The notes under the pieces were generated by a model that worked only from the letters and a program-made list of their open reading frames with translations, had not been told where the DNA came from and made no database searches. This document shows positions 29,853-41,532 of a stretch of 64,000 nucleotides of DNA, piece after piece. How positions within the stretch are numbered: position 1 is the first letter of the stretch; every line of letters starts with the position of its first letter. The position numbers were made by a program, and so were the translations under genes. This DNA comes from an uncultured Alphaproteobacteria bacterium (lineage in GTDB: Bacteria; Pseudomonadota; Alphaproteobacteria; HIMB59; GCA-002718135). The stretch is from assembly GCA_902553005.1 (NCBI GenBank), contig CACDIK010000003.1, positions 3,113 to 67,112 on the forward strand. Direction: 5' to 3'.

Positions 29853-30665
29853 ATGAAATTTAAAAGTAATAAAAAATTTTACCGCACAATTTGGATTTCG
29901 GATACCCATCTAGGAACCAGTGGTTGTAAAAGCAAAATGCTTTTAGAATTCTTAGAAGAAACAGATTCGGAATATTTATTTTTAGTAGGCGACATTGTTG
30001 ATGGATGGCGCATGCGTAAGAAAATGTATTGGCCACAAGAACATAACGACGTGGTTCAAAAAGTTTTAAAGAAAGCGAAAAATGGAACTAGGGTAGTGCT
30101 TATTCCAGGAAATCATGATGAGGTATTAAAAGATTTTACAAATTTTTCTTTTGGAGAAATTTCTATCAAAAATGAAGATACGCATCAATTAGCTGATGGA
30201 AGGAAAGTACTGATTACACACGGAGATGAATTTGATGCTGTGATAATTAATGCGAGGTGGTTAGCCAAAGTGGGATCAGCACTTTATGAATATTTACTAA
30301 AGTTAAATAATGTATTTAATTTTATTCGACGAAAGATGGGCTTGTCTTACTGGTCACTGTCTCAATATTTAAAAAAGAAAACAAAGCATGCAACTAACTT
30401 TATTAGTAATTTTGAGTTTGCTGTATCTGATAGAGCTAGAAGAGAAAATGCCGATGTTGTTGTATGTGGGCATATACATAGACCAGAAATAAAAGAATTA
30501 AATGGTGTTCTCTATTGTAATGATGGTGACTGGATTGAAAGTTGTACAGCACTTGTTGAAGATGAAATTGGCAATTTATCAATTCTTAATTGGCCCGAAG
30601 AAAGAGAAAATTTAAAATTAATTTCTTTAGAAGAAAGACGAAAAATAAAAGAGGATGCAGCCTAA
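29853..30665 (+). CDS. plcP: LpxH-like metallophosphoesterase, PlcP-type phospholipase C candidate (copy 1)
   Basis: 270 aa with calcineurin-type motifs (ISDTHLG, GDIVDGW, GNHD, GHIH). It is coupled to a GT4 glycosyltransferase, as in the described P-starvation lipid-remodelling operon. Confidence 0.7.
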   Translation: MKFKSNKKFYRTIWISDTHLGTSGCKSKMLLEFLEETDSEYLFLVGDIVDGWRMRKKMYWPQEHNDVVQKVLKKAKNGTRVVLIPGNHDEVLKDFTNFSFGEISIKNEDTHQLADGRKVLITHGDEFDAVIINARWLAKVGSALYEYLLKLNNVFNFIRRKMGLSYWSLSQYLKKKTKHATNFISNFEFAVSDRARRENADVVVCGHIHRPEIKELNGVLYCNDGDWIESCTALVEDEIGNLSILNWPEERENLKLISLEERRKIKEDAA

Positions 30666-31656
30666 AAAAATCGCATTAATTAGTGATGCGTGGGTTCCTC
30701 AGGTAAATGGCGTAGTTACGACATTTCAAAGCGTTATACCTATTCTAGAAAAAAAAGGTTTTGAAATTAAAATATTACATCCTGAGATGTTTAATAATTT
30801 TAGTTATCCTAGGTACAAAGAAATAAAGATTTCTTACAACACTAAGAAAGTTACTGAAAAATTTTTTAAAGAATTTAATCCAGATATTGTTCATATAATG
30901 ACTGAAGGTCCAGTAGGTTTTGCTGGTCGTAAGTACTGTCTTAAAAATAAACTACAATATACTTCTTCCTTTCACACTCGTTTTCCTGATTATATTAAAC
31001 AAAGAGCTTTTATCCCAAAGAGATTTACTTATTCCATATTAAGAAAACTACATAGTGATTCTGAAAAAGTTCTTGTTCCATCAGTTTCAATGCTAAATGA
31101 GTTAAAAAAATATAATTTTAAAAATTTAGTAGTTTGGAACAGAGGTGTTGATACAGAATTATTTAATCCAAATAAAAGAGACACAAACAGTAAAGATAGA
31201 CAACTGACTTATGTTGGAAGAGTAGCAATTGAAAAAAATATTGAAGAATTTTTAAAACTTAAAGGAAATTATAATAAAATAGTTGTGGGGGATGGTCCTG
31301 AATTAGAAAAATATACTAATAAGTATCCTGAAGTAAATTTTGTTGGTTTAAAAACCGGAGAAGAATTAGCAAAGTATTATGCAAACGCAGATGTGTTTGT
31401 ATTTCCTTCTAAAACAGACACTTTAGGAAATGTAATACTTGAAGCATTGGCTAGTGGAACACCAGTTGCTGCATATCCAGTAACTGGGCCTATAGATGTA
31501 TTAACAGATGAGAAGATTAACACTTTAGATAATGACTTATTACAATCAATTAAAAAAGCGCTTAAAGTAAAAAGGGTTGATTGTAGAAATTTTACACTTA
31601 ATTTAACATGGGATAAATGCGTGAAAGAATTTTTAGAATACATGGTAAACGTCTAG
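30655..31656 (+). CDS. agt: GT4 glycosyltransferase, Agt-type glycolipid synthase candidate (copy 1)
   Basis: 333 aa with the GT-B/GT4 C-terminal EX7E-like region (PSKTDTLGNVILEALASGTPV). It overlaps plcP by 11 nt. Confidence 0.7.
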   Translation: MQPKKIALISDAWVPQVNGVVTTFQSVIPILEKKGFEIKILHPEMFNNFSYPRYKEIKISYNTKKVTEKFFKEFNPDIVHIMTEGPVGFAGRKYCLKNKLQYTSSFHTRFPDYIKQRAFIPKRFTYSILRKLHSDSEKVLVPSVSMLNELKKYNFKNLVVWNRGVDTELFNPNKRDTNSKDRQLTYVGRVAIEKNIEEFLKLKGNYNKIVVGDGPELEKYTNKYPEVNFVGLKTGEELAKYYANADVFVFPSKTDTLGNVILEALASGTPVAAYPVTGPIDVLTDEKINTLDNDLLQSIKKALKVKRVDCRNFTLNLTWDKCVKEFLEYMVNV

Positions 31657-33786: not shown

Positions 33787-35886
33787 ATGTTAAAAAAAAA
33801 TACCGCTTATAACTATGCAAACAGGGAATTGTCTTGGCTAAAATTCAATGAAAGAGTCTTAAGTCAGACATCTGATAGTAAAATTCCACTTTTAGAAAGG
33901 GTTAGATTTTTATCAATAGCATTCTCTAATTTAGATGAATTTTTTATGGTTAGAGTAGCAGGATTGAATGTTCAAAAATTTTCACGAAATAAAAGTTTTG
34001 ATGGATTAACACCACAACAACAACTCAAGCTGATAGATAAAGAAACATCGAAGATGATTTCAAATATAAAATCAATATGGATAGATTTACTAAGAGAGCT
34101 TTCAGAAAACAAAATCCATATAGATGTAGAAAAAACACTGAAAACAAAAGATAAAACATTTATTAAAAATTATTTAGAAGAAAATAATTGGGGGGTTTTA
34201 ACGCCAATTATTATTGATCCATCTCACCCATTTCCTTTTATACCAAATAAAGAAACAACCTTAGTATGTCGTTTAATGAATAATAAAAAAACTTTTTATG
34301 GAATACTAAGAGTGCCAGAGGGATTAGAAAAATTTATTAAATTACCTGGTAAAAAAACACGTTTTGTATCTATGGAGACAGCCCTACTTATTTCTTTAAA
34401 AGAAATTTTCCAGTGTGATAGGGTTTTGGATAAAGGTGTTTTTAGACCAATTAGGAATAGTGAATTAGAATTAGGGGGTGAAGGAGAAGATTTATTTTTA
34501 GTATTTCAAAAAGCTATTTTTGAGAGAAGAAGACAAGAGGTAATAAGAATTGATTTTGATGAAAGTATATCTAGTCACTTAATTAAATTCATAAATAAAA
34601 AACTTAACTATAAGGATGTAAATACATATAAACTGCCAATACCCGTTAATCTTTCGAGTATAGAGTCAATTTTTTTGAAAGATTTTAAAAAATTATTTTT
34701 TCCAAAATTTAAGGTACGATTTCCTGAAAGAATTAAAGATTTTAAAAATGATTATTTTAAAGCTATAGCAAATAAAGATATTGTTATTCATCACCCTTTT
34801 GAATCTTTTGAAGTAGTGACGCAGTTTATTGATCAAGCTGCAGATGATCCAAAAGTCTTATCAATAAAACATACTTTATATCGAACTACTGATGACTCAC
34901 CAATAGAAGCAAGTTTAGTTAGAGCAGCACAAAAAGGAAAATTAGTAACTGTCATTATAGAGTTGCAAGCACGTTTTGATGAAGAGCGTAACTTAAAATG
35001 GGCAAAAGAATTAGAATTAGCTGGAGCGCAAGTTGTTTTTGGCAATATTGATATGAAAACTCATGCAAAAATTACACTTGTAACAAGGAAGCAAATGAAT
35101 TCTGTTGTAAATTACGCACATTATGGAACAGGTAATTATCACCCGAGAAATGCAAGAGTTTATATGGATTTATCTTACTTCACCTGTGACAAAACATTAA
35201 CAAATGATGCTGCAAAAATGTTTAATTATTTAACTAGTTATTCTGAACCAACAACAATAAAAAAAATAGTATATTCTCCAATAACTGCAAGAAACAAATT
35301 AAATGAACTAATTAGAAATGAAATTACAAATGCTGGAAAAAATAAACCATCTGGAATAGTATGTAAGTGTAATGCTCTTGTTGATAAACAAATTATTGAT
35401 GAATTTTATAAAGCATCTCAAAAAAATGTAAAAATTGAATTGTTGATAAGAGGAATTTGCTCTCTAATACCTGGTAAAGAAAATCTATCAGAAAATATAG
35501 TTGTTAAAAGCATAATTGGTCGTTTTTTAGAACATACGAGAATATATTGTTTTTATAATGGTCATAAATTCCCTCATAGAAAAAATATCTTGTTTATTTC
35601 TTCTGCCGATTTAATGCAAAGAAATCTAGATAGGCGGGTTGAAACATTTATTCCTATTGAAAATGAAACTGTACATGAACAAATATTAAATCAGATCTTA
35701 ATTGCCAGTTTGACAGATAATACAAATTCTTGGCAAATGTTAAGTAATGGCAATTATCAGAAAAAAGAAATATCAAGCAAAGAGAAAAAATTTTCCTCTC
35801 ACAATTTTTTTATCAAAAATCCAAGCTTGTCTGGGAGGGGTTCAGCAAAACTCAAATCTAGAGCTAAGTCTAATTTAAAAATTTGA
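33787..35886 (+). CDS. ppk1: Polyphosphate kinase 1
   Basis: 699 aa with NRELSWLKFNERVL at the N-terminus, two PLD-like C-domains (KTHAKITLV), and RFLEHTRIY. Confidence 0.95.
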   Translation: MLKKNTAYNYANRELSWLKFNERVLSQTSDSKIPLLERVRFLSIAFSNLDEFFMVRVAGLNVQKFSRNKSFDGLTPQQQLKLIDKETSKMISNIKSIWIDLLRELSENKIHIDVEKTLKTKDKTFIKNYLEENNWGVLTPIIIDPSHPFPFIPNKETTLVCRLMNNKKTFYGILRVPEGLEKFIKLPGKKTRFVSMETALLISLKEIFQCDRVLDKGVFRPIRNSELELGGEGEDLFLVFQKAIFERRRQEVIRIDFDESISSHLIKFINKKLNYKDVNTYKLPIPVNLSSIESIFLKDFKKLFFPKFKVRFPERIKDFKNDYFKAIANKDIVIHHPFESFEVVTQFIDQAADDPKVLSIKHTLYRTTDDSPIEASLVRAAQKGKLVTVIIELQARFDEERNLKWAKELELAGAQVVFGNIDMKTHAKITLVTRKQMNSVVNYAHYGTGNYHPRNARVYMDLSYFTCDKTLTNDAAKMFNYLTSYSEPTTIKKIVYSPITARNKLNELIRNEITNAGKNKPSGIVCKCNALVDKQIIDEFYKASQKNVKIELLIRGICSLIPGKENLSENIVVKSIIGRFLEHTRIYCFYNGHKFPHRKNILFISSADLMQRNLDRRVETFIPIENETVHEQILNQILIASLTDNTNSWQMLSNGNYQKKEISSKEKKFSSHNFFIKNPSLSGRGSAKLKSRAKSNLKI

Positions 35887-35895
35887 AAATAGAAT

Positions 35896-36093
35896 TTAAT
35901 CCCACTCACAATAATTGGACATAAGCAGGAAGAAATAATACTGCGAGTGGTAAGATGTAATTAAATTTTATTTTTTACAGACGTGTTAATAGAATATTAA
36001 ATTTTTATAAATTAAACTAATTTTTTAATTTATTGGTTTTCAAATAAATTTTTTAGTTCCTTCAATTTTTGAAAATTGAATCTCTTACTTCTT
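35896..36093. repeat. Left copy of a roughly 198-bp diverged direct repeat
   Basis: It aligns by eye with 38907-39104 at about 85% identity with one 1-nt indel. It contains the hairpin CCACTCACA...TGCGAGTGG at 35902-35950. Confidence 0.85.
36033..36093 (-). pseudogene. Relic of the arsC 3' end inside the left repeat copy
   Basis: The minus strand encodes ...KLKELKNLFENQ*, whose first 11 residues are identical to the last 11 residues of the intact ArsC (39044-39463). Upstream it is frameshifted by a 1-nt deletion and has no start. Confidence 0.8.
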
Positions 36094-36112
36094 AGTAACT
36101 ATAATTTTAAAA

Positions 36113-37108
36113 TTAATTTTTTGCATTTACAACATTTGATAGAAATTGATTTGCACATTTATCCCAAGTAAATTGCATTGCAAATTTTCTACAATCTTTT
36201 CTATCAATCTTTAAGGCTTTATTAAGTGAGTTTTCAATATTATTATCAAGGCTATCAATTAATGAGTTTTTTAAAATATCTTTAGGACCTGTTACTGGGT
36301 AAGCAGCCACTGGTGTGCCAGAGGCTAAAGACTCTAAAATTACATTTCCAAATGTATCTGTTTTGGATGGGAATACCAATGCTTCAGCATTTGCATAATA
36401 GTTTGCTAGGTCTTGACCTTTTTTCATCCCAACGAAAGACACATATGGATATTTATTTTGTAATCGTTGCTTTTCTGGACCATCTCCAACAACAATTTTA
36501 TGCATCTTAGTTCTTATTTCTAAAAACGCTTCGATGTTTTTTTCTAATGAAACCCTACCAATGTAAACAATATACTTTTTCATTCCCTTTTTTCTTTTTA
36601 AAGGATTAAATAATTCAGTATTAACTCCCCTTGACCAAATTTTAAGATTTTGAAATTGATATTTAGTTAATTCGTTACGCATAGATATTGTTGGGACCAA
36701 TACATTACATGCATTTTTATGAAAATTTTTTAAAAAAGAGTACCCAATTATTTTTGGTATCATTATTCTTTGCTCTATATATTCTGGAAATCTCGTATGA
36801 AAAGAGGTTGTATATCTCAACTTATTATTCTCACAGAATTTTTTCCCCGCAATTCCAACTGGTCCTTCAGTGGCAATATGTATAACATCTGGATCATAAT
36901 CACCAAAAAATTTTTCTGTTATTTTTTTTGTATTAATTGCTATTTTTATTTCCTTATACCAAGGATAACTAAAATTAGTAAACATCATTGGGTGGAGTAC
37001 TTCAATTTGATACTTTTGTTTTAAAAATGGATTAATATGTTGGTATGTATTTACCACACCATTAACTTGGGGAAGCCAAGCATCGGTAATGATCGCTAAT
37101 TTTTTCAC
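36113..37108 (-). CDS. agt: GT4 glycosyltransferase, Agt paralog (copy 2)
   Basis: 331 aa, colinear with 30655-31656 at roughly 60% aa identity by eye (DAW.PQVNGVV, TEGPVG, SFHTRFP, PSKTDTFGNVILE). Confidence 0.7.
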   Translation of the reverse strand: MKKLAIITDAWLPQVNGVVNTYQHINPFLKQKYQIEVLHPMMFTNFSYPWYKEIKIAINTKKITEKFFGDYDPDVIHIATEGPVGIAGKKFCENNKLRYTTSFHTRFPEYIEQRIMIPKIIGYSFLKNFHKNACNVLVPTISMRNELTKYQFQNLKIWSRGVNTELFNPLKRKKGMKKYIVYIGRVSLEKNIEAFLEIRTKMHKIVVGDGPEKQRLQNKYPYVSFVGMKKGQDLANYYANAEALVFPSKTDTFGNVILESLASGTPVAAYPVTGPKDILKNSLIDSLDNNIENSLNKALKIDRKDCRKFAMQFTWDKCANQFLSNVVNAKN

Positions 37109-37911
37109 ACTAATACACTTTCTGCTAGTTTGTTATGTTTATGTTGAAAAATTTTTTCTCTTTCAATTGACCAGTCAATAAGGGATAATTGTCCCTCATT
37201 ATTTTCCACTAGCGCAGAACAACTCTCAACCCAATCACCATCATTGCAATATAAAACTCCATTTAATTTTTTTATAATGGGCTTATGAATATGGCCGCAC
37301 ACAACAACATCAGCATTTGCTCTTTTAGCACTATCAGATACGGCAAACTCAAAGTTAGAAATAAAATTCGTGGCTCTTTTTGTTTGATGTTTGAGAAATT
37401 GAGATAATGACCAATAAGATAGACCTAGTTTTCTTCTGACAAAATTTAGATAGTTATTCAACTTTAATATAAATTCGTATAGAGATGACCCAATACTTGC
37501 CAGCCATTTAGCGTTTAATATAACTGCATCAAATTCATCACCATGTAAAACAAGGGCATTTCTTCCATCAGCTAATTTGTGTGTAAACTTATTTTTTATT
37601 GATATATTCCCTAGTGAAAAACTTGTGTAACTTTTCACAAGTTCGTCATGATTACCTGGGATAAATATTACTTTTGTACCTTTTCTTGCTTTACGCAAAA
37701 TCTTCTGGATAATGTCATTATGAGTTTGATGCCAATAAATTTTTTTTTTCATTCTCCATGCATCAATAATATCGCCAACTAAAAATAAATATTTTGAATC
37801 TGTTGATCTCAAAAATTCAAGAAGCATTTCACTCTTGCTATTTTCTGTTCCAAGATGAAGATCAGATATCCATATAGTTCTATAATATGAAACTGATTGC
37901 TGATCTTTCAT
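37105..37911 (-). CDS. plcP: LpxH-like metallophosphoesterase, PlcP paralog (copy 2)
   Basis: 268 aa, about two-thirds identical by eye to 29853-30665, with the same metal motifs. It overlaps agt copy 2 by 4 nt. Confidence 0.7.
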   Translation of the reverse strand: MKDQQSVSYYRTIWISDLHLGTENSKSEMLLEFLRSTDSKYLFLVGDIIDAWRMKKKIYWHQTHNDIIQKILRKARKGTKVIFIPGNHDELVKSYTSFSLGNISIKNKFTHKLADGRNALVLHGDEFDAVILNAKWLASIGSSLYEFILKLNNYLNFVRRKLGLSYWSLSQFLKHQTKRATNFISNFEFAVSDSAKRANADVVVCGHIHKPIIKKLNGVLYCNDGDWVESCSALVENNEGQLSLIDWSIEREKIFQHKHNKLAESVLV

Positions 37912-37922
37912 TTTATTAATAA

Positions 37923-37956
37923 ATAATAGAAAGAATTTGTTAAAATTTTATTTCAA
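37923..37956 (-). promoter_or_regulatory. Candidate Pho box plus -10 element for plcP copy 2
   Basis: The minus strand reads TTGAAAT-AAAA-TTTTAAC, then 10 nt, then TATTAT, then 11 nt to the ATG. It shares the 12-mer ATTGAAATAAAA with the site at 55967. Confidence 0.35.
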
Positions 37957-37989
37957 TTACATTAACTAAATTTTTTTTTTACAGAAGTA

Positions 37990-38832
37990 TTAATTAAATA
38001 TTGAGTTTTTATTACTTGGATCTAATCTATAAGTGCTATTCCTTAAAAATTTTGTAATCTCAATAAGATTGCCAATTTCTTTTATGGTTTCAAAGGGTAT
38101 TCTTTGTCCAATATGAACATCAATTTTTTTTCCCATTCTTCTTTTAAGTTCATATATCATTAAAGAATATCGAAAGACTTGCCCAATTTTATCAGCAACA
38201 TGAAAAAGTTCGCTATTTTGTCCTTCAAAAAAAATTGGGAGGACAGGTGATTGAGTTTTCATTATTATTTTTGAAGTAAATTGTTTCCATTCACGATCTA
38301 TTGCTTTGATTCCTTTTTTTAATTTTGGTTTCGTTGAAACTGATCCTGATGGAAAAATGATTAGTGCCCCATTATTTCTTAAGTGTTCTTCGCATTCTTT
38401 ACGTGCAGCGATATTATTTATTAAAGCATTTCTATTTTTTGAAAAATCAAGAGGAATAATTTTATTCTTAATAAGATCTGCTCCTTGTAAAACTTTATGC
38501 GTAATAATTTTGTAATCTTGTCTAATTTTACTAATTAAAGAGCATATTGTAAGACCATCAGCTATTCCAAATGCATGGTTAGCGATTACTACAAGTTTGC
38601 CATTTTTAGGAATATTACTTTTAGAATGATAATGTGTCTGAATACGGAGACCTAATCTTTCAATTGCATCATGCCAAAAATTCTCTGGAGGTAAATTTTC
38701 TCTTAAATAATCCTCATACAACTTACGTAACTTAATTTTACCCGTTCCCAATTCGGTTAATTGAATAATAATCTTTCCAACAGGATTAACTTCGGAGTTA
38801 GAAAAGGTAAGCGCTGGTTTATTAATTTTCAT
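37990..38832 (-). CDS. LPLAT/PlsC-superfamily acyltransferase (lyso-lipid acyltransferase candidate)
   Basis: 280 aa with NHAFGIADG (an acyltransferase His-Asp motif with atypical spacing) and an FPSGSVS block resembling the FPEGTRS motif. It lies upstream of plcP copy 2. Confidence 0.55.
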   Translation of the reverse strand: MKINKPALTFSNSEVNPVGKIIIQLTELGTGKIKLRKLYEDYLRENLPPENFWHDAIERLGLRIQTHYHSKSNIPKNGKLVVIANHAFGIADGLTICSLISKIRQDYKIITHKVLQGADLIKNKIIPLDFSKNRNALINNIAARKECEEHLRNNGALIIFPSGSVSTKPKLKKGIKAIDREWKQFTSKIIMKTQSPVLPIFFEGQNSELFHVADKIGQVFRYSLMIYELKRRMGKKIDVHIGQRIPFETIKEIGNLIEITKFLRNSTYRLDPSNKNSIFN

Positions 38833-38906
38833 AAAATTTACTTTAAATTCTTAATTTTATAATGTTAAACAATTGTTAAAGTACTCGAAAAAGGAGAAAT
38901 AAAAAA

Positions 38907-39104
38907 TTAATCCCACTCACAATTATTGGTAATTAGCAGGAGGAAATAATACTGTGAGTGGTAAGAAACATTTAAATTTTATTGTTTACAAATAGATTAA
39001 TGGAATATTAAATTTTTATAAATTTAATTAATTTTTAACTTCATTAATTCTCAAATAAATTTTTTAGTTCTTTCAATTTATCAAAAATTGAATCTCTTAC
39101 TTCT
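38907..39104. repeat. Right copy of the roughly 198-bp direct repeat (includes the functional arsC 3' end)
   Basis: It aligns with 35896-36093. It contains a perfect 9-bp stem, CCACTCACA...TGTGAGTGG (38913-38961), extended by ATTAT/ATAAT pairing. Confidence 0.85.
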
Positions 39105-39463
39105 CTAAATTTATCTAATTGGTTTGAACTAAAATGATCTGATGCCGGATCATCAAATGGTATTGAAAATATCTGAGCTTTGGAATTTAAAACTGGACAT
39201 ACCTCTTCTTTACAAAGCGTAAAAACGGTATTTAATTCATCTCTAAATTTGTTGTCTAAACTTTCAAAATCTTTTGAATAATGTTTTGATATATCAATAT
39301 CGATTTCACCCATAACCTCGATAGCATTAGGATTAACTTCTTTGGGCAATGATCCTGCACTTTGAATAATGCAATTAGGATATAATTTTTTTGCAATTCC
39401 TTCAGCCATTTGACTTCTTGCTGAATTAGCAACACACATAAAAAGAATATTTTTATTTTTCAT
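39044..39463 (-). CDS. arsC: Arsenate reductase, LMW-PTPase type
   Basis: 139 aa with the P-loop CVANSARS (CX5R-S) near the N-terminus and downstream Cys residues (LCKEEVCP). Confidence 0.8.
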   Translation of the reverse strand: MKNKNILFMCVANSARSQMAEGIAKKLYPNCIIQSAGSLPKEVNPNAIEVMGEIDIDISKHYSKDFESLDNKFRDELNTVFTLCKEEVCPVLNSKAQIFSIPFDDPASDHFSSNQLDKFREVRDSIFDKLKELKNLFEN

Positions 39464-39687
39464 GTTAGCAAATAAATATATCCAAAAATAAATAGTGGGA
39501 GTTGTAAACCAAAGTTTGTGAGCAGAGCTCTATCTTTTGTCATATAACCAACAATTGACCAACCAACAGCACCTGTACCGTGAATAATTATGTTAATTGG
39601 ATACGCATTTAAATTGGTTAATAATATTCCTGATAAAATTAACGCGGTGCTAAACCACTTAATTCTATTAATTGATAAATCTGTCAT
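39460..39687 (-). CDS. Small membrane protein of unknown function
   Basis: 75 aa with two to three hydrophobic helices. Its stop overlaps the arsC start (ATGA), which implies co-translation. Confidence 0.45.
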   Translation of the reverse strand: MTDLSINRIKWFSTALILSGILLTNLNAYPINIIIHGTGAVGWSIVGYMTKDRALLTNFGLQLPLFIFGYIYLLT

Positions 39688-39753
39688 ATCTTCTCCTAAA
39701 TTCTATATATTGCGAATATTACACTTTACTTAAAGATAAAGATATTAATCAAA

Positions 39754-39771
39754 TTGTAACAAAAATTTAAC
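39754..39771 (+). promoter_or_regulatory. Candidate Pho box upstream of DUF47-pit
   Basis: TTGTAAC-AAAA-ATTTAAC lies 40 nt upstream of the ATG. No convincing -10 element is found at the expected spacing. Confidence 0.25.
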
Positions 39772-39810
39772 ATTTCTTTCTTTTTTTTTGAAAAGTTCTA
39801 TAAGCACGCC

Positions 39811-40473
39811 ATGTTTGGATTAAAAAGTGCATCATTATTTGGTGATACCAAAAAGCTTGAAAGAGAAATTGATGAGTTTGTTGATATTGTCTCTGAAGTG
39901 GGCTTAGTATTTAAATCGATAGTTCCAATTTATCTCAATCATTCCGCCAATGGTAAATTTGAGGAAATGGTTGAAAAAGTTAAAGAAATGGAAAGTAAGG
40001 CCGACAAAATTACAAAAGATGTTGAGCATACTCTTTATGAAGAAACACTAATCCCAGATGCAAGAAGTGATGTGTTACGACTTCTAGAACACATCGACGA
40101 ATTAATTGGAATGTACCAAGGAAATTGCTATCACTTCTCTATTCAAAAACCTAATTTTCCAAAAGAATTTCATGAAGATCTTATTGAGTTAACAGAGACT
40201 GTTGTAAATTGTGTTGAGTCACTTTGTTTGACTGTCCGATCATTTTTTAGAGATATTAAATCTGTTAGAGATAATGCTCATAAAGTAACTTTTTATGAAA
40301 AAGAATCTGATATAAAATTTAGTTCACTTGCAAGAAGAATTTTTGATTCTGAATTACCTCTAGATCAAAAAATGCATCTTCGATATTTTGTAGAAAAGAT
40401 TGATCGTATTTGTGATCAAGCAGAAGACATAGCTGACGAGGTTCAAATTTACGCTATTAAACGTTCCGTTTAA
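39811..40473 (+). CDS. DUF47 / PhoU-like Pit accessory protein
   Basis: 220 aa, helical, with a conserved D-x3-D-like C-terminal motif (DRICDQAEDIADEV). It is immediately upstream of a PiT transporter, the canonical DUF47-PiT pairing. Confidence 0.75.
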   Translation: MFGLKSASLFGDTKKLEREIDEFVDIVSEVGLVFKSIVPIYLNHSANGKFEEMVEKVKEMESKADKITKDVEHTLYEETLIPDARSDVLRLLEHIDELIGMYQGNCYHFSIQKPNFPKEFHEDLIELTETVVNCVESLCLTVRSFFRDIKSVRDNAHKVTFYEKESDIKFSSLARRIFDSELPLDQKMHLRYFVEKIDRICDQAEDIADEVQIYAIKRSV

Positions 40474-40479
40474 TTTTCA

Positions 40480-41532
40480 ATGGAAATTACAATTCTAATT
40501 TTTTTATTTGGTGGTCTTTTTTTAGGTTGGTCACTTGGTGCCAATGATGCAGCAAATGTTTTTGGAACTGCAGTTGGAACACGAATGGTTAGTTTCACAA
40601 GTGCAGCAATAATTTGTAGTGTCTTTGTTATTCTAGGTGCAATTATTAGCGGAGCAGGTACAACAGAAACCTTAGGAAAGTTAGGTGCTATTAATGCATT
40701 GCCTGGTGCTTTTGCAGCATGTGTGGCTGCAGGAATATCTGTTTATTTAATGACTAAAGTTGGCTTGCCTGTTTCAACAACGCAAGCAATTGTTGGAGCA
40801 ATTGTTGGTTGGAATTTATACACGGGATCTTCAACTAATCTTCAAGTTTTAATTACTATTTTAGGAACATGGATACTCTGCCCTATCATTGCAGGAGTTA
40901 TTGCTATGGGTTTATTTACTTTTACAAAAAGAGTTATACTCAATAGAAAATTACATATTCTCAGACTTGATGCCTATACAAGAACAGCTTTACTTTTAGC
41001 AGGTGCTTTTGGTGCTTATAGTTTAGGTGCAAACAATATTGCTAATGTAATGGGTGTCTTCGTACCTATATCACCGTTTACTGATGTTACTATTGGAAAT
41101 TTATTCGTCTTTTCCTCAAAAGAACAACTATTTCTGCTGGGTGGTTTAGCCATAGCTGTTGGTGTTTTTACCTACTCGAAAAGAGTTATGTTTACCGTGG
41201 GTAATGATCTCTTAAAAATGACACCAGTGGCAGCATTTATTGTTGTTATATCGCATTCTATTGTTTTATTTTTATTTGCATCCCAGGGCATAAGTGCTTT
41301 TTTACAATCTATAAATCTTCCTTCTATACCTTTGGTACCAGTATCAAGTTCCCAAGCTGTTGTTGGTGGCGTAATTGGAATTGGTCTTTTAAAAGGAGGA
41401 AAAGAGGTTCAATGGTCAATTGCAGGAAGAATTTCTTTGGGTTGGATGACGCTACCTATAATTGCAGCTTTAATTTCTTTAATTGTTTTATTTATTCTAG
41501 AAAATATTTTTAATTTAACGGTCTCTTTTTAA
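40480..41532 (+). CDS. pit: Inorganic phosphate transporter, PiT family
   Basis: 350 aa with the duplicated PiT signature GANDAANVFGTAVG and, in the second half, GANNIANVMG. Confidence 0.9.
   Translation: MEITILIFLFGGLFLGWSLGANDAANVFGTAVGTRMVSFTSAAIICSVFVILGAIISGAGTTETLGKLGAINALPGAFAACVAAGISVYLMTKVGLPVSTTQAIVGAIVGWNLYTGSSTNLQVLITILGTWILCPIIAGVIAMGLFTFTKRVILNRKLHILRLDAYTRTALLLAGAFGAYSLGANNIANVMGVFVPISPFTDVTIGNLFVFSSKEQLFLLGGLAIAVGVFTYSKRVMFTVGNDLLKMTPVAAFIVVISHSIVLFLFASQGISAFLQSINLPSIPLVPVSSSQAVVGGVIGIGLLKGGKEVQWSIAGRISLGWMTLPIIAALISLIVLFILENIFNLTVSF

Follow-up and report, generated by a model that had tools for sequence, protein, structure and literature searches.

We analysed a 64,000-nucleotide (nt) stretch of contig CACDIK010000003.1 from an uncultured alphaproteobacterium (64 kb in all; hereafter the window), in which three genes of lipid metabolism lie between a polyphosphate kinase gene and an arsC-like gene and are bracketed by two copies of a direct repeat. 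The left flank is ppk1 (polyphosphate kinase 1; 33787-35886, plus strand), for which all four PPK domains were matched in Pfam and which is convergent with arsC. The right flank, on the minus strand, is the DUF6552-arsC operon. Its first gene encodes a DUF6552 membrane protein (39460-39687; Pfam) with an RNA 5′ end at 39696, and it is followed by the gene for an arsC-like low-molecular-weight phosphatase (39044-39463; PF01451), whose top NCBIfam match was arsC_pI258_fam at 93 bits, under the 174-bit cut-off. Between these flanks, also on the minus strand, lie agt2 (36113-37108), which encodes a GT4 diacylglycerol glycosyltransferase, plcP2 (37105-37911), which encodes a PlcP-type metallophosphoesterase, and the gene for an acyltransferase (37990-38832; PF19576/PF01553).

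A direct repeat with a live and a dead arsC 3′ end

A repeat search of the window returned a direct repeat pair of 199 nt with a spacing of 3011 nt. When the left copy (35896-36093) was aligned globally with the right copy (38907-39104), 169 of 199 columns were identical (85%) and there was one 1-nt indel, which falls in the arsC-derived tail; the copies were also aligned with MAFFT. A first-pass annotation, made from the letters alone, had judged by eye that the two segments match along their whole length at about this level. Given that the segments are only 20-22% G+C, chance similarity of AT-rich sequence, or an artefact of assembly, might be suspected, but both are refuted. The pair has a local score of 138, where 300 shuffles reached no more than 30, and in a scan of the left copy against both strands of the 64 kb the right copy is by far the top match and makes the only such pair. 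Moreover, one metagenome unitig (run X1) spans the whole structure from ppk1 to the right copy with 3 differences, and the same structure recurs in several single-cell genomes, so that overall it is seen in more than 10 independent genomes plus metagenome unitigs. The similarity is therefore not a low-complexity effect, and the repeat is not an assembly artefact.

The two copies differ in what they hold of arsC. The right copy contains the live end of the gene, which reads …REVRDSIFDKLKELKNLFEN before its stop. The left copy holds the last 20 arsC codons in dead form (36038-36093, minus strand): translations show that a 1-nt deletion has shifted the frame, that the stop has changed from TAA to CAA with the next codon being TAA, and that no 5′ part is present. 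One frame of this remnant gives …QKLKELKNLFENQ and a stop (…QKLKELKNLFEN with the stop shifted one codon) and another gives EVRDSIF. Within the repeat, a 20-nt tract (tcaaataaattttttagttc) is identical in the two copies, at 36040-36059 and 39051-39070, and marks the crossover point of filled and empty alleles.

Thus the first-pass annotation was right to take the right copy as the true arsC 3′ end and the left copy as a frameshifted remnant that has lost its own stop. Its placing of the second agt and plcP genes and the acyltransferase between the copies was likewise confirmed by Pfam, the gaps to the repeat edges being 19 nt and 74 nt. It had also remarked that no integrase or transposase is present; indeed, neither in the window nor in 15 related loci, whatever the allele, did any gene within ~10 kb match such a family in Pfam.

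Alleles at the ppk1/arsC junction

Relatives with the same junction were gathered by means of the clade-specific C-terminus of ppk1 and by exact look-ups of the acyltransferase and DUF6552 proteins, and their loci were annotated with the window's own proteins. A scan of the genome collection with full-length ppk1 was swamped by conserved PPK motifs, mostly from Rhizobiales, and locus L001 was its sole useful match; the C-terminal 70 amino acids (aa), which are specific to the clade, performed better. The window's arsC protein has no exact match on record, and the adjoining DUF6552 protein, which is present in exactly this form on 700 contigs, served as the query instead. Population evidence came from Logan unitigs (k = 31) and their mean depths.

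The host lineage is taken to be warm-water SAR11 (Pelagibacteraceae). A relative of the DUF6552 protein in its 90% cluster is named by NCBI as a Pelagibacteraceae bacterium, homologues of the acyltransferase at 60-65% identity stand in a SAR11 core setting (glpX, ETF and sarcosine-oxidase genes), and each of 20 seawater metagenomes held 94-98% of the region's sampled 31-mers.

The site has the same position, between ppk1 and DUF6552-arsC, in 20 loci, and six states were distinguished. When it is empty, ppk1 and arsC are separated by ~140 nt with one hairpin, as in three loci of a sister clade (L001, L093 and L094), whose ppk1 is 74-75% identical, and in four of the same species (L109, L110, L113 and L117), which carry an identical DUF6552 protein. 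In L092, a Sargasso GOS contig, the order is ppk1, a hairpin (hp2), a ~75-nt remnant of a gene that we call X470, the acyltransferase gene, the hairpin of the repeat (hp1) and arsC, with one 198-nt copy. The three genes of the window recur in L083-L087, L108, L112, L114 and L116. Four genes are found in L081, L082, L111 and L115, in which X470 stands between the acyltransferase gene and plcP2 and is followed by hp2 and a 49-63-nt dead ppk1 3′ end. Locus L091 adds to this arrangement a four-gene ugp-like ATP-binding cassette (ABC) transporter between the acyltransferase gene and hp1, and L118 carries, in the same place, a 91%-identical variant of agt2.

X470 itself encodes 470 aa, matches no family in Pfam or NCBIfam (L081:10951-12363; also in L082, L091, L111 and L115), and has its own hairpin hp2 (GAAGCTGGATATATTCCAGCTTC) and the dead ppk1 3′ end behind it. 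The transporter is ugpBAEC-like, with a binding protein, two permeases and an ATPase (L091:15187-19328); the opening bases of the repeat supply the stop codon of its ATPase gene (…AGAAT/TTAATCCC). In all alleles, cargo of known family belongs to phosphorus (P)-sparing lipid metabolism or to P uptake, and the comparison supports the site as an accretion hot spot in a flexible phosphate-stress island.

This series bears on several further claims of the first-pass annotation. Its ancestral state, with ppk1 and arsC convergent on a hairpin, exists as the empty state of both the sister clade and the same species, so that relatives are not all filled, and the alternative cassettes that it predicted for the junction were found as the acyltransferase alone, as four genes and as four genes with the ugp-like transporter. 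Its three-gene cassette held up only in part: the three genes do lie between the copies, but they are not a single unit, the acyltransferase being apparently older (L092 has it alone) and X470 having apparently been lost.

Identity of the two copies

An alignment of 27 copies of the 198-nt segment, taken from all loci, separates two types. In the four empty sites of the same species the left-type hairpin and spacer are joined to live arsC; for example, the copy in L109 equals the window's left copy through column 165 and its right copy thereafter. The right-type hairpin and spacer show 25 differences from the left type in the first 145 columns. They are 98-100% uniform in 10 of 11 genomes with plcP2-agt2 (the right copy of L091 is a 94% mosaic), are absent from every empty site and stand next to the acyltransferase only. 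Four metagenomes were checked for unitigs that link the right-type hairpin with another left neighbour; three have none, and the fourth (X18) has just a low-depth variant ~18 nt upstream of it. The single copy beside the acyltransferase in L092 is nearer the empty type. Left copies follow the sub-haplotypes of empty sites, that of the window being the same as L109 and those of L083 and L115 resembling L110.

These comparisons show the two copies to be diverged alleles of a single junction that now share a chromosome. The left copy (35896-36093) is the resident allele, comprising the arsC 3′ untranslated region (UTR; hairpin and spacer) and the dead last 20 arsC codons, severed from arsC after codon -20. 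The right copy (38907-39104) is an acyltransferase-linked hairpin and spacer allele that now ends live arsC, nearly uniform in cassette carriers and not found in empty sites. Because the right haplotype occurs only beside the acyltransferase and the left one is the empty-site allele, the incoming DNA must have supplied the live arsC end, and the resident end died. The same pattern bears out the earlier proposal that the block arrived by recombination and brought a copy of its target with it, in the manner of islands that rebuild the 3′ end of their target gene.

The direct orientation, equal length and 85% identity of the copies would also be expected if the hairpin and arsC end had been duplicated in place, in tandem, and had then diverged, with the genes inserted later. 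Yet the left copy is 100% identical to a current empty allele over 165 columns, whereas the right copy differs at 25 of 145 and is uniform in carriers, a pattern that fits pre-existing alleles and not the clock-like divergence of duplicates; furthermore, L092 has the acyltransferase with a single copy. We regard such a duplication as improbable, and the 15% divergence as evidently allelic and not as decay after duplication in place.

Nested scars and a proposed order of events

Beyond the repeat pair, the block and its relatives retain other fragments of the junction, and the three scars together imply at least three events. Scar 1 (37962-38026) consists of ~64 nt that resemble the spacer of the arsC 3′ UTR (35957-36021; local score 35, the highest of 1000 shuffles being 23). 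It encodes the last codons of the acyltransferase (…NKNSIFN) and the stop, and core homologues of this protein end just past …LDP. Scar 2 is the dead ppk1 3′ end beside hp2 and X470 in L081, L082 and L091; in L092 it is the real ppk1 that stands beside hp2 and the X470 remnant. Taken together, these suggest that an allele with the order ppk1, hp2, X470, acyltransferase, hp1, arsC predated plcP2-agt2. Scar 3 is the left repeat copy. Its join with agt2 (…cttacttct/tagtaac…; …cttacttct/tagtaactataatttt…) is identical in every three- and four-gene allele and therefore arose once, and there is no homology past the break.

Relative to L081, the window lacks 1.78 kb (X470, hp2 and the dead ppk1 3′ end) at 37967/37968, and the gap is clean, with a microhomology of 2-3 nt only. 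Because of Scar 2, the window lineage most likely lost this segment by deletion. The four-gene allele reads as three pieces, namely an empty-type junction cut in arsC, agt2 and plcP2 with ~250 nt, and an older junction cut in ppk1. The acyltransferase would accordingly be the older insertion, L092 having just that gene, and plcP2-agt2 the later one. Close to the X470 gap, a motif CTGTAAAAAA(A/T)AAAATTTA (minus strand) is found at 37968-37990, upstream of plcP2, and again at 35972-35995, in the spacer of the arsC 3′ UTR; it is loosely like half a Pho box and may merely reflect the spacer-like scar.

Before filling, ppk1 and DUF6552-arsC converged on a ~140-nt spacer with one arsC-sense hairpin, a state that is still seen. 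We propose that the acyltransferase and X470 were added first, plcP2-agt2 second and, in some strains, the ugp-like transporter third. Each step would have combined homology on one side with an illegitimate join on the other, or would have integrated a circular piece, and each would have left its own local junction fragment: the spacer piece, the dead ppk1 3′ end, and the hairpin with spacer and dead arsC end. The junction anatomy fits homologous plus illegitimate recombination, and we consider it probable that the repeat is a recombination scar, formed without a recombinase, at a gene-accretion hot spot in a phosphate-stress island.

Presence and absence in wild populations

In run X3, the ppk1 unitig extends to 36059 at a depth of 66, an error-free unitig covers 36030-39080 at a depth of 28, and the arsC unitig starts from 39051 at a depth of 63. 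The 40-nt bridge predicted for an empty allele (36030-36059 plus 39071-39080) is present exactly, at a depth of 20. It matches the left copy over 36030-36068 with one mismatch and the right copy over 39051-39080 perfectly, and in it the latter part is preceded by the left-type spacer TTATTGGTTT. Depths of cassette and flank were 35 vs ~55 in X6, 13.6 vs ~22 in X9 and 19 vs 19-23 in X1, and in X13 the graph forks just past the ppk1 stop, one branch being an hp1 allele (depth 6.4) and the other an hp2 allele (depth 9.9).

The empty locus L109 matches the three-gene locus L112 at 100.0% identity in the 2.5 kb to the left of the site, and another three-gene locus, L114, at 100.0% in the 2.5 kb to its right. 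Four-gene alleles belong to a separate ppk1 haplogroup that is ~96% identical to the others. The tract shared by both copies is identical over 20 nt, and over up to ~30 nt in some alleles. These data show that empty alleles join the left-type spacer to arsC exactly in the shared tract, and we read gain or loss of the block as recent and repeated. As the route of loss we favour recombination between the two copies; in the tract, this would remove, and possibly reinstate, the 3-kb block, and would thereby keep the presence/absence polymorphism.

The same scar could also be without any present role for the repeat, with empty alleles being ancestral and double crossovers in ppk1 and arsC the sole means of exchange between the states. 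Exchange of SAR11 flexible islands is indeed attributed to homologous recombination in their conserved flanks (PMC11796062, PMC10734472), flank haplotypes are shuffled relative to the cassette state, and no circle junction was seen in X3. However, double crossovers predict that the left copy travels with the cassette, whereas left copies track the local empty sub-haplotypes. In addition, L109 and L112 are the same throughout the left 2.5 kb and columns 1-165, and the difference between them starts exactly at the 20-nt tract. We therefore hold this account, the chief competitor of our reading, to be possible but doubtful.

At the other end of the range, the module of hairpin, spacer and gene end might be a landing pad that works without a recombinase, the block leaving as a circle through the 20-nt tract and, once taken up by a different cell, re-entering an empty site there. 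This would account for left copies that match local empty haplotypes while the right copy is uniform. We offer the idea tentatively, and think it somewhat unlikely.

Several points weigh against a scar that still serves for loss of the block. Only four empty single-cell genomes of the same species were read, which is a small sample, and the order of events is read from the scars alone. No donor or intermediate for plcP2-agt2 (a dead arsC end with agt2-plcP2 and no second junction) was found; the closest Agt outside the cassette clusters is 67% identical, and the 91% variant of L118 sits at the same junction. The reciprocal circle junction (right spacer, shared tract, left tail) is not among the unitigs of X3, the one run checked. 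In that run the cassette (28) and the bridge (20) leave ~18 of the ~66 flank depth unexplained, these being depths of unitigs and not of reads. Finally, the empty alleles could all be ancestral, with states swapped just by double crossovers in the flanking genes.

A hairpin conserved in the arsC-sense RNA

The hairpin hp1 is present in both repeat copies, on the minus strand. In the left copy (35902-35950) it is situated downstream of agt2, where it presumably forms the 3′ end or terminator of plcP2-agt2; in the right copy (38913-38961), where it was defined by folds, pattern search and covariation, it lies downstream of live arsC. The pattern CCACTCACA...TGYGAGTGG occurs only at these two positions in the 64 kb, with 0 expected by chance. 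A dispersed repeat of the REP or MITE kind was rejected, the hairpin being found only at the two sites of the window. The left hairpin folds at -16.7 kcal/mol on the minus strand (z -3.5) and at -11.5 kcal/mol on the plus strand (z -1.6).

From a single stem difference, the first-pass annotation had suggested that the structure matters in the arsC-sense RNA or acts as a bidirectional terminator. Eleven distinct sequences (left type, right type, L092 and sister clade) with an 11-bp stem were examined for covariation, and all of the stem variation is compensatory or G·U in that sense. In fact, 121 of 121 stem cells pair in the arsC sense, a figure that falls to 31-55% when the partner columns are slid. 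Two stem pairs have changed on both sides (C-G to U-A and A-U to G-C) and five on one side by way of G·U; read in the ppk1 sense, the 15 G·U cells would become A·C mismatches. The stem is, to judge from this pattern, selected in the arsC-sense RNA.

The plcP2-agt2 transcript, which faces ppk1, has to stop at the place that the left hairpin now occupies, and this hairpin may act as its terminator. In the sister-clade locus L001, UUUUUUUU with eight U directly follows the stem, which is terminator-like. Other observations qualify this putative terminator role. In the window the U-rich run lies a few bases farther and the loop is 27-28 nt, and a consensus terminator scan makes no call; RNA contigs do not cover the left copy; and one acyltransferase RNA contig extends into the right hairpin, which may be leaky as a terminator. 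The consensus promoter/terminator scan gave counts as in shuffles and was uninformative. Across 35000-40000, Rfam 15 returned nothing near a gathering score, and a permissive scan gave only matches at the level of chance to snoRNA and miRNA families.

Two other features of the hairpin were noted. Its loop at 38929-38942 (minus strand, UUUCCUCCUG) contains UUCCUCC, which is anti-Shine-Dalgarno-like and is shared by the right type, L092 and L001:2795-2805, and the left and empty-type loop has UUCUUCC; this loop stretch is conserved across 25% protein divergence. A small open reading frame (ORF) that starts at a GTG in the right hairpin after AGGAGG was discarded as a candidate gene, its length not being conserved in L092 and the frame being absent from L001 and the left copy.

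Genes of the block and their surroundings

The plcP2 and agt2 genes repeat a pair that the genome already has. The resident first lipid-remodelling pair, plcP1-agt1 (29853-31656, plus strand; Pfam), is present in all alleles including the empty ones; agt2 is a paralogue of agt1 with 61% aa identity, and plcP2 a paralogue of plcP1 with 69%, both by BLASTP. plcP2 lies directly upstream of agt2, and their ORFs overlap by 4 nt. This is the arrangement of the published PlcP-Agt operon, in which PlcP stands directly upstream of a GT4 Agt (Sebastián et al. 2016, PMC4796936). Both UDP-sugar motifs are kept in agt2, as GRVSLEKN and FPSKTDTFG, where the published Agt motifs are GRVAXEKN and FPSXTDTFG (PMC8231724). 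In strain HTCC7211, PlcP and Agt replace phospholipids with glucosyl- and glucuronosyl-diacylglycerol under P deficiency (PMC4796936, PMC8231724).

For the acyltransferase, matched in Pfam and NCBIfam, the best NCBIfam scores are those of OlsF and GlsA, below the equivalog cut-offs, and the protein resembles the N-terminal half of OlsF, or GlsA. In the aminolipid-synthesis proteins OlsF and GlsA, PF19576 marks the half that serves as O-acyltransferase (PMC11631085). The gene is a paralogue of a core SAR11 gene beside glpX (core context in L088-L090), and its product is probably a lyso-aminolipid O-acyltransferase.

All three genes of the block are under purifying selection, the ratio of nonsynonymous to synonymous polymorphism (pN/pS) being 0.10-0.21 in comparisons with enough synonymous change (0.14-0.15 for agt2 and 0.10-0.17 for plcP2). 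They are also detected in seawater metatranscriptomes, with plcP2 on metatranscriptome contigs. In two metatranscriptomes from poly(A) libraries, contigs end at 37916 (minus strand), 5 nt upstream of the plcP2 ATG, and continue with CCCGTACTCTGCGTTGAT, which we take to be the template-switch oligo. These ends place a separate transcription start for plcP2-agt2 at 37916. By such tags, the minus-strand 5′ ends are near-leaderless, at 5 nt for plcP2 (37916) and 9 nt for DUF6552 (39696). Poly(T) tags are seen on contig ends at 39060 and 38148, which points to polyadenylated fragments or to internal priming.

Other parts of the island vary as well. At least three old types of plcP-agt paralogues, 60-78% identical, circulate in it: the sister-clade loci L093 (2309-5987) and L094 have two tandem plcP-agt pairs upstream of a MIP gene, and L092:4243-6000, also upstream of a MIP gene, holds a third type. 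In L083:5887-7289 there are partial matches to ppx (279 of 301 residues) and to a MIP channel gene (155 of 218), with only short genes called, and these genes look disrupted. A PhoU_div-Pit pair (39735-41527 in the window) is cleanly missing in L082, L111 and L115; in L082 the gap has a junction overlap of ~10 nt and no long scar, and the pair is a second presence/absence module of the island. The ppk1 stop (35884-35886) has changed from TGA to TGG in L110, L113, L114 and L117, among which are both filled and empty loci, and this extends the protein from 699 to 701 aa.

Discussion

The locus shows the features of a flexible island: a fixed position, related but variable content and a partial repeat of the target at its boundary. 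Some integrative islands enter a tRNA, tmRNA or protein gene at its 3′ end and bring a substitute for that end. In common with them, the block is flanked by direct repeats, the insert completes the live gene, the displaced dead end lies on the far side, and relatives with an empty site exist. Unlike them, it has no integrase, its repeats are long and imperfect where a short identical core would be usual, and its insert is a mosaic built in several steps. The locus therefore works like an island that rebuilds its target 3′ end, but it lacks the defining feature of an integrase island, because no recombinase is present.

One might nevertheless take the repeat for the attachment (att) sites of a site-specific integrative element whose recombinase lies elsewhere or has been lost. 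Rebuilding of the target 3′ end by the incoming side, the existence of empty sites and sharp boundaries that are identical in all carriers would all agree with this. The 20-nt identical tract, which sits within the 198-nt repeat of 85% identity, would suit an att core or homologous recombination equally. Apart from that tract, however, there is no clean identical core of the kind that att sites would have, no recombinase gene occurs in the six allele types or within ~10 kb, and the modular content, with nested scars of both flanking genes, is unlike a single element with fixed ends. We consider such an element very improbable, and prefer the recombinase-free scar.

Homology-facilitated illegitimate recombination and Campbell-type integration are known mainly from laboratory transformation. 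They resemble the present case in that homology anchors a single side while the join on the far side needs little or none, that the anchor can be duplicated, and that direct repeats permit later loss; here, the process is deduced from natural alleles. The microcin H47 island of E. coli, which is likewise small and has direct repeats at its ends, disappears when these recombine, without a site-specific recombinase of its own (PMC3191183, PMC5426353). There, excision was demonstrated by experiment, whereas here it is deduced from population data, and organism and cargo are unrelated (PMC3191183, PMC5426353).

Among SAR11 population genomes (2025), no canonical mobile elements were found in 61 islands, partial tRNA repeats of >90% identity inside four islands were taken as marks of cassette insertion, and island GI-36 of genomospecies gMED is devoted to P metabolism (PMC11796062). 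The window is like those gMED islands in organism group, in fixed positions, in the near absence of canonical mobile elements and in flexible genes that are often paralogues of core genes. It differs from them in that what has been duplicated is not a tRNA but a protein gene's 3′ end with its hairpin and 3′ UTR, in that the copies are diverged alleles (85% vs >90% for the tRNA repeats), and in that scars of both flanks are nested and the crossover that separates filled from empty alleles is resolved to single-base precision (PMC11796062).

For P islands of HIMB59 (2023), homologous recombination was argued from the absence of insertion sequence and tRNA hallmarks, in the passages that describe them (PMC10734472). 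As listed in those passages, the gene repertoire is nearly the same as that of the window, the shared genes being those for a SET methyltransferase, an LpxH-like protein (PlcP), an RfaG-like glycosyltransferase, GlpF and ppx, as well as SixA, ppk, a low-molecular-weight phosphatase, pst, phoR/phoB and Pit, and there too several versions occur at one locus (PMC10734472). HIMB59 belongs to a different order of Alphaproteobacteria, given that the host here is read as SAR11, and those same passages describe no junction scars or repeats, whereas here the scars are readable (PMC10734472). The locus is of the same general kind as these islands and not a new system; it stands apart by a protein-gene end with a hairpin as the target, copies that are diverged alleles, nested scars, and a join narrowed to a 20-nt tract in wild populations.

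SAR11 ranks with the most abundant organisms of the ocean and has almost no mobile elements and many small flexible islands, and its gene traffic has been deduced mostly from absences. The present locus is a readable and checkable record of adaptive gene gain and loss in a streamlined genome without mobile elements. Were the landing pad real, SAR11 would shuffle adaptive cassettes in an integron-like way by means of general recombination machinery. The 40-nt bridge and the two cassette junctions could mark carriers and non-carriers in metagenomes along phosphate gradients. Filled and empty alleles coexist in the same seawater samples, and the cargo, a second PlcP-Agt pair and an aminolipid-type acyltransferase, spares phosphorus by substituting membrane phospholipids. 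The polymorphism therefore probably tunes the lipid-remodelling capacity of the population under phosphate stress.

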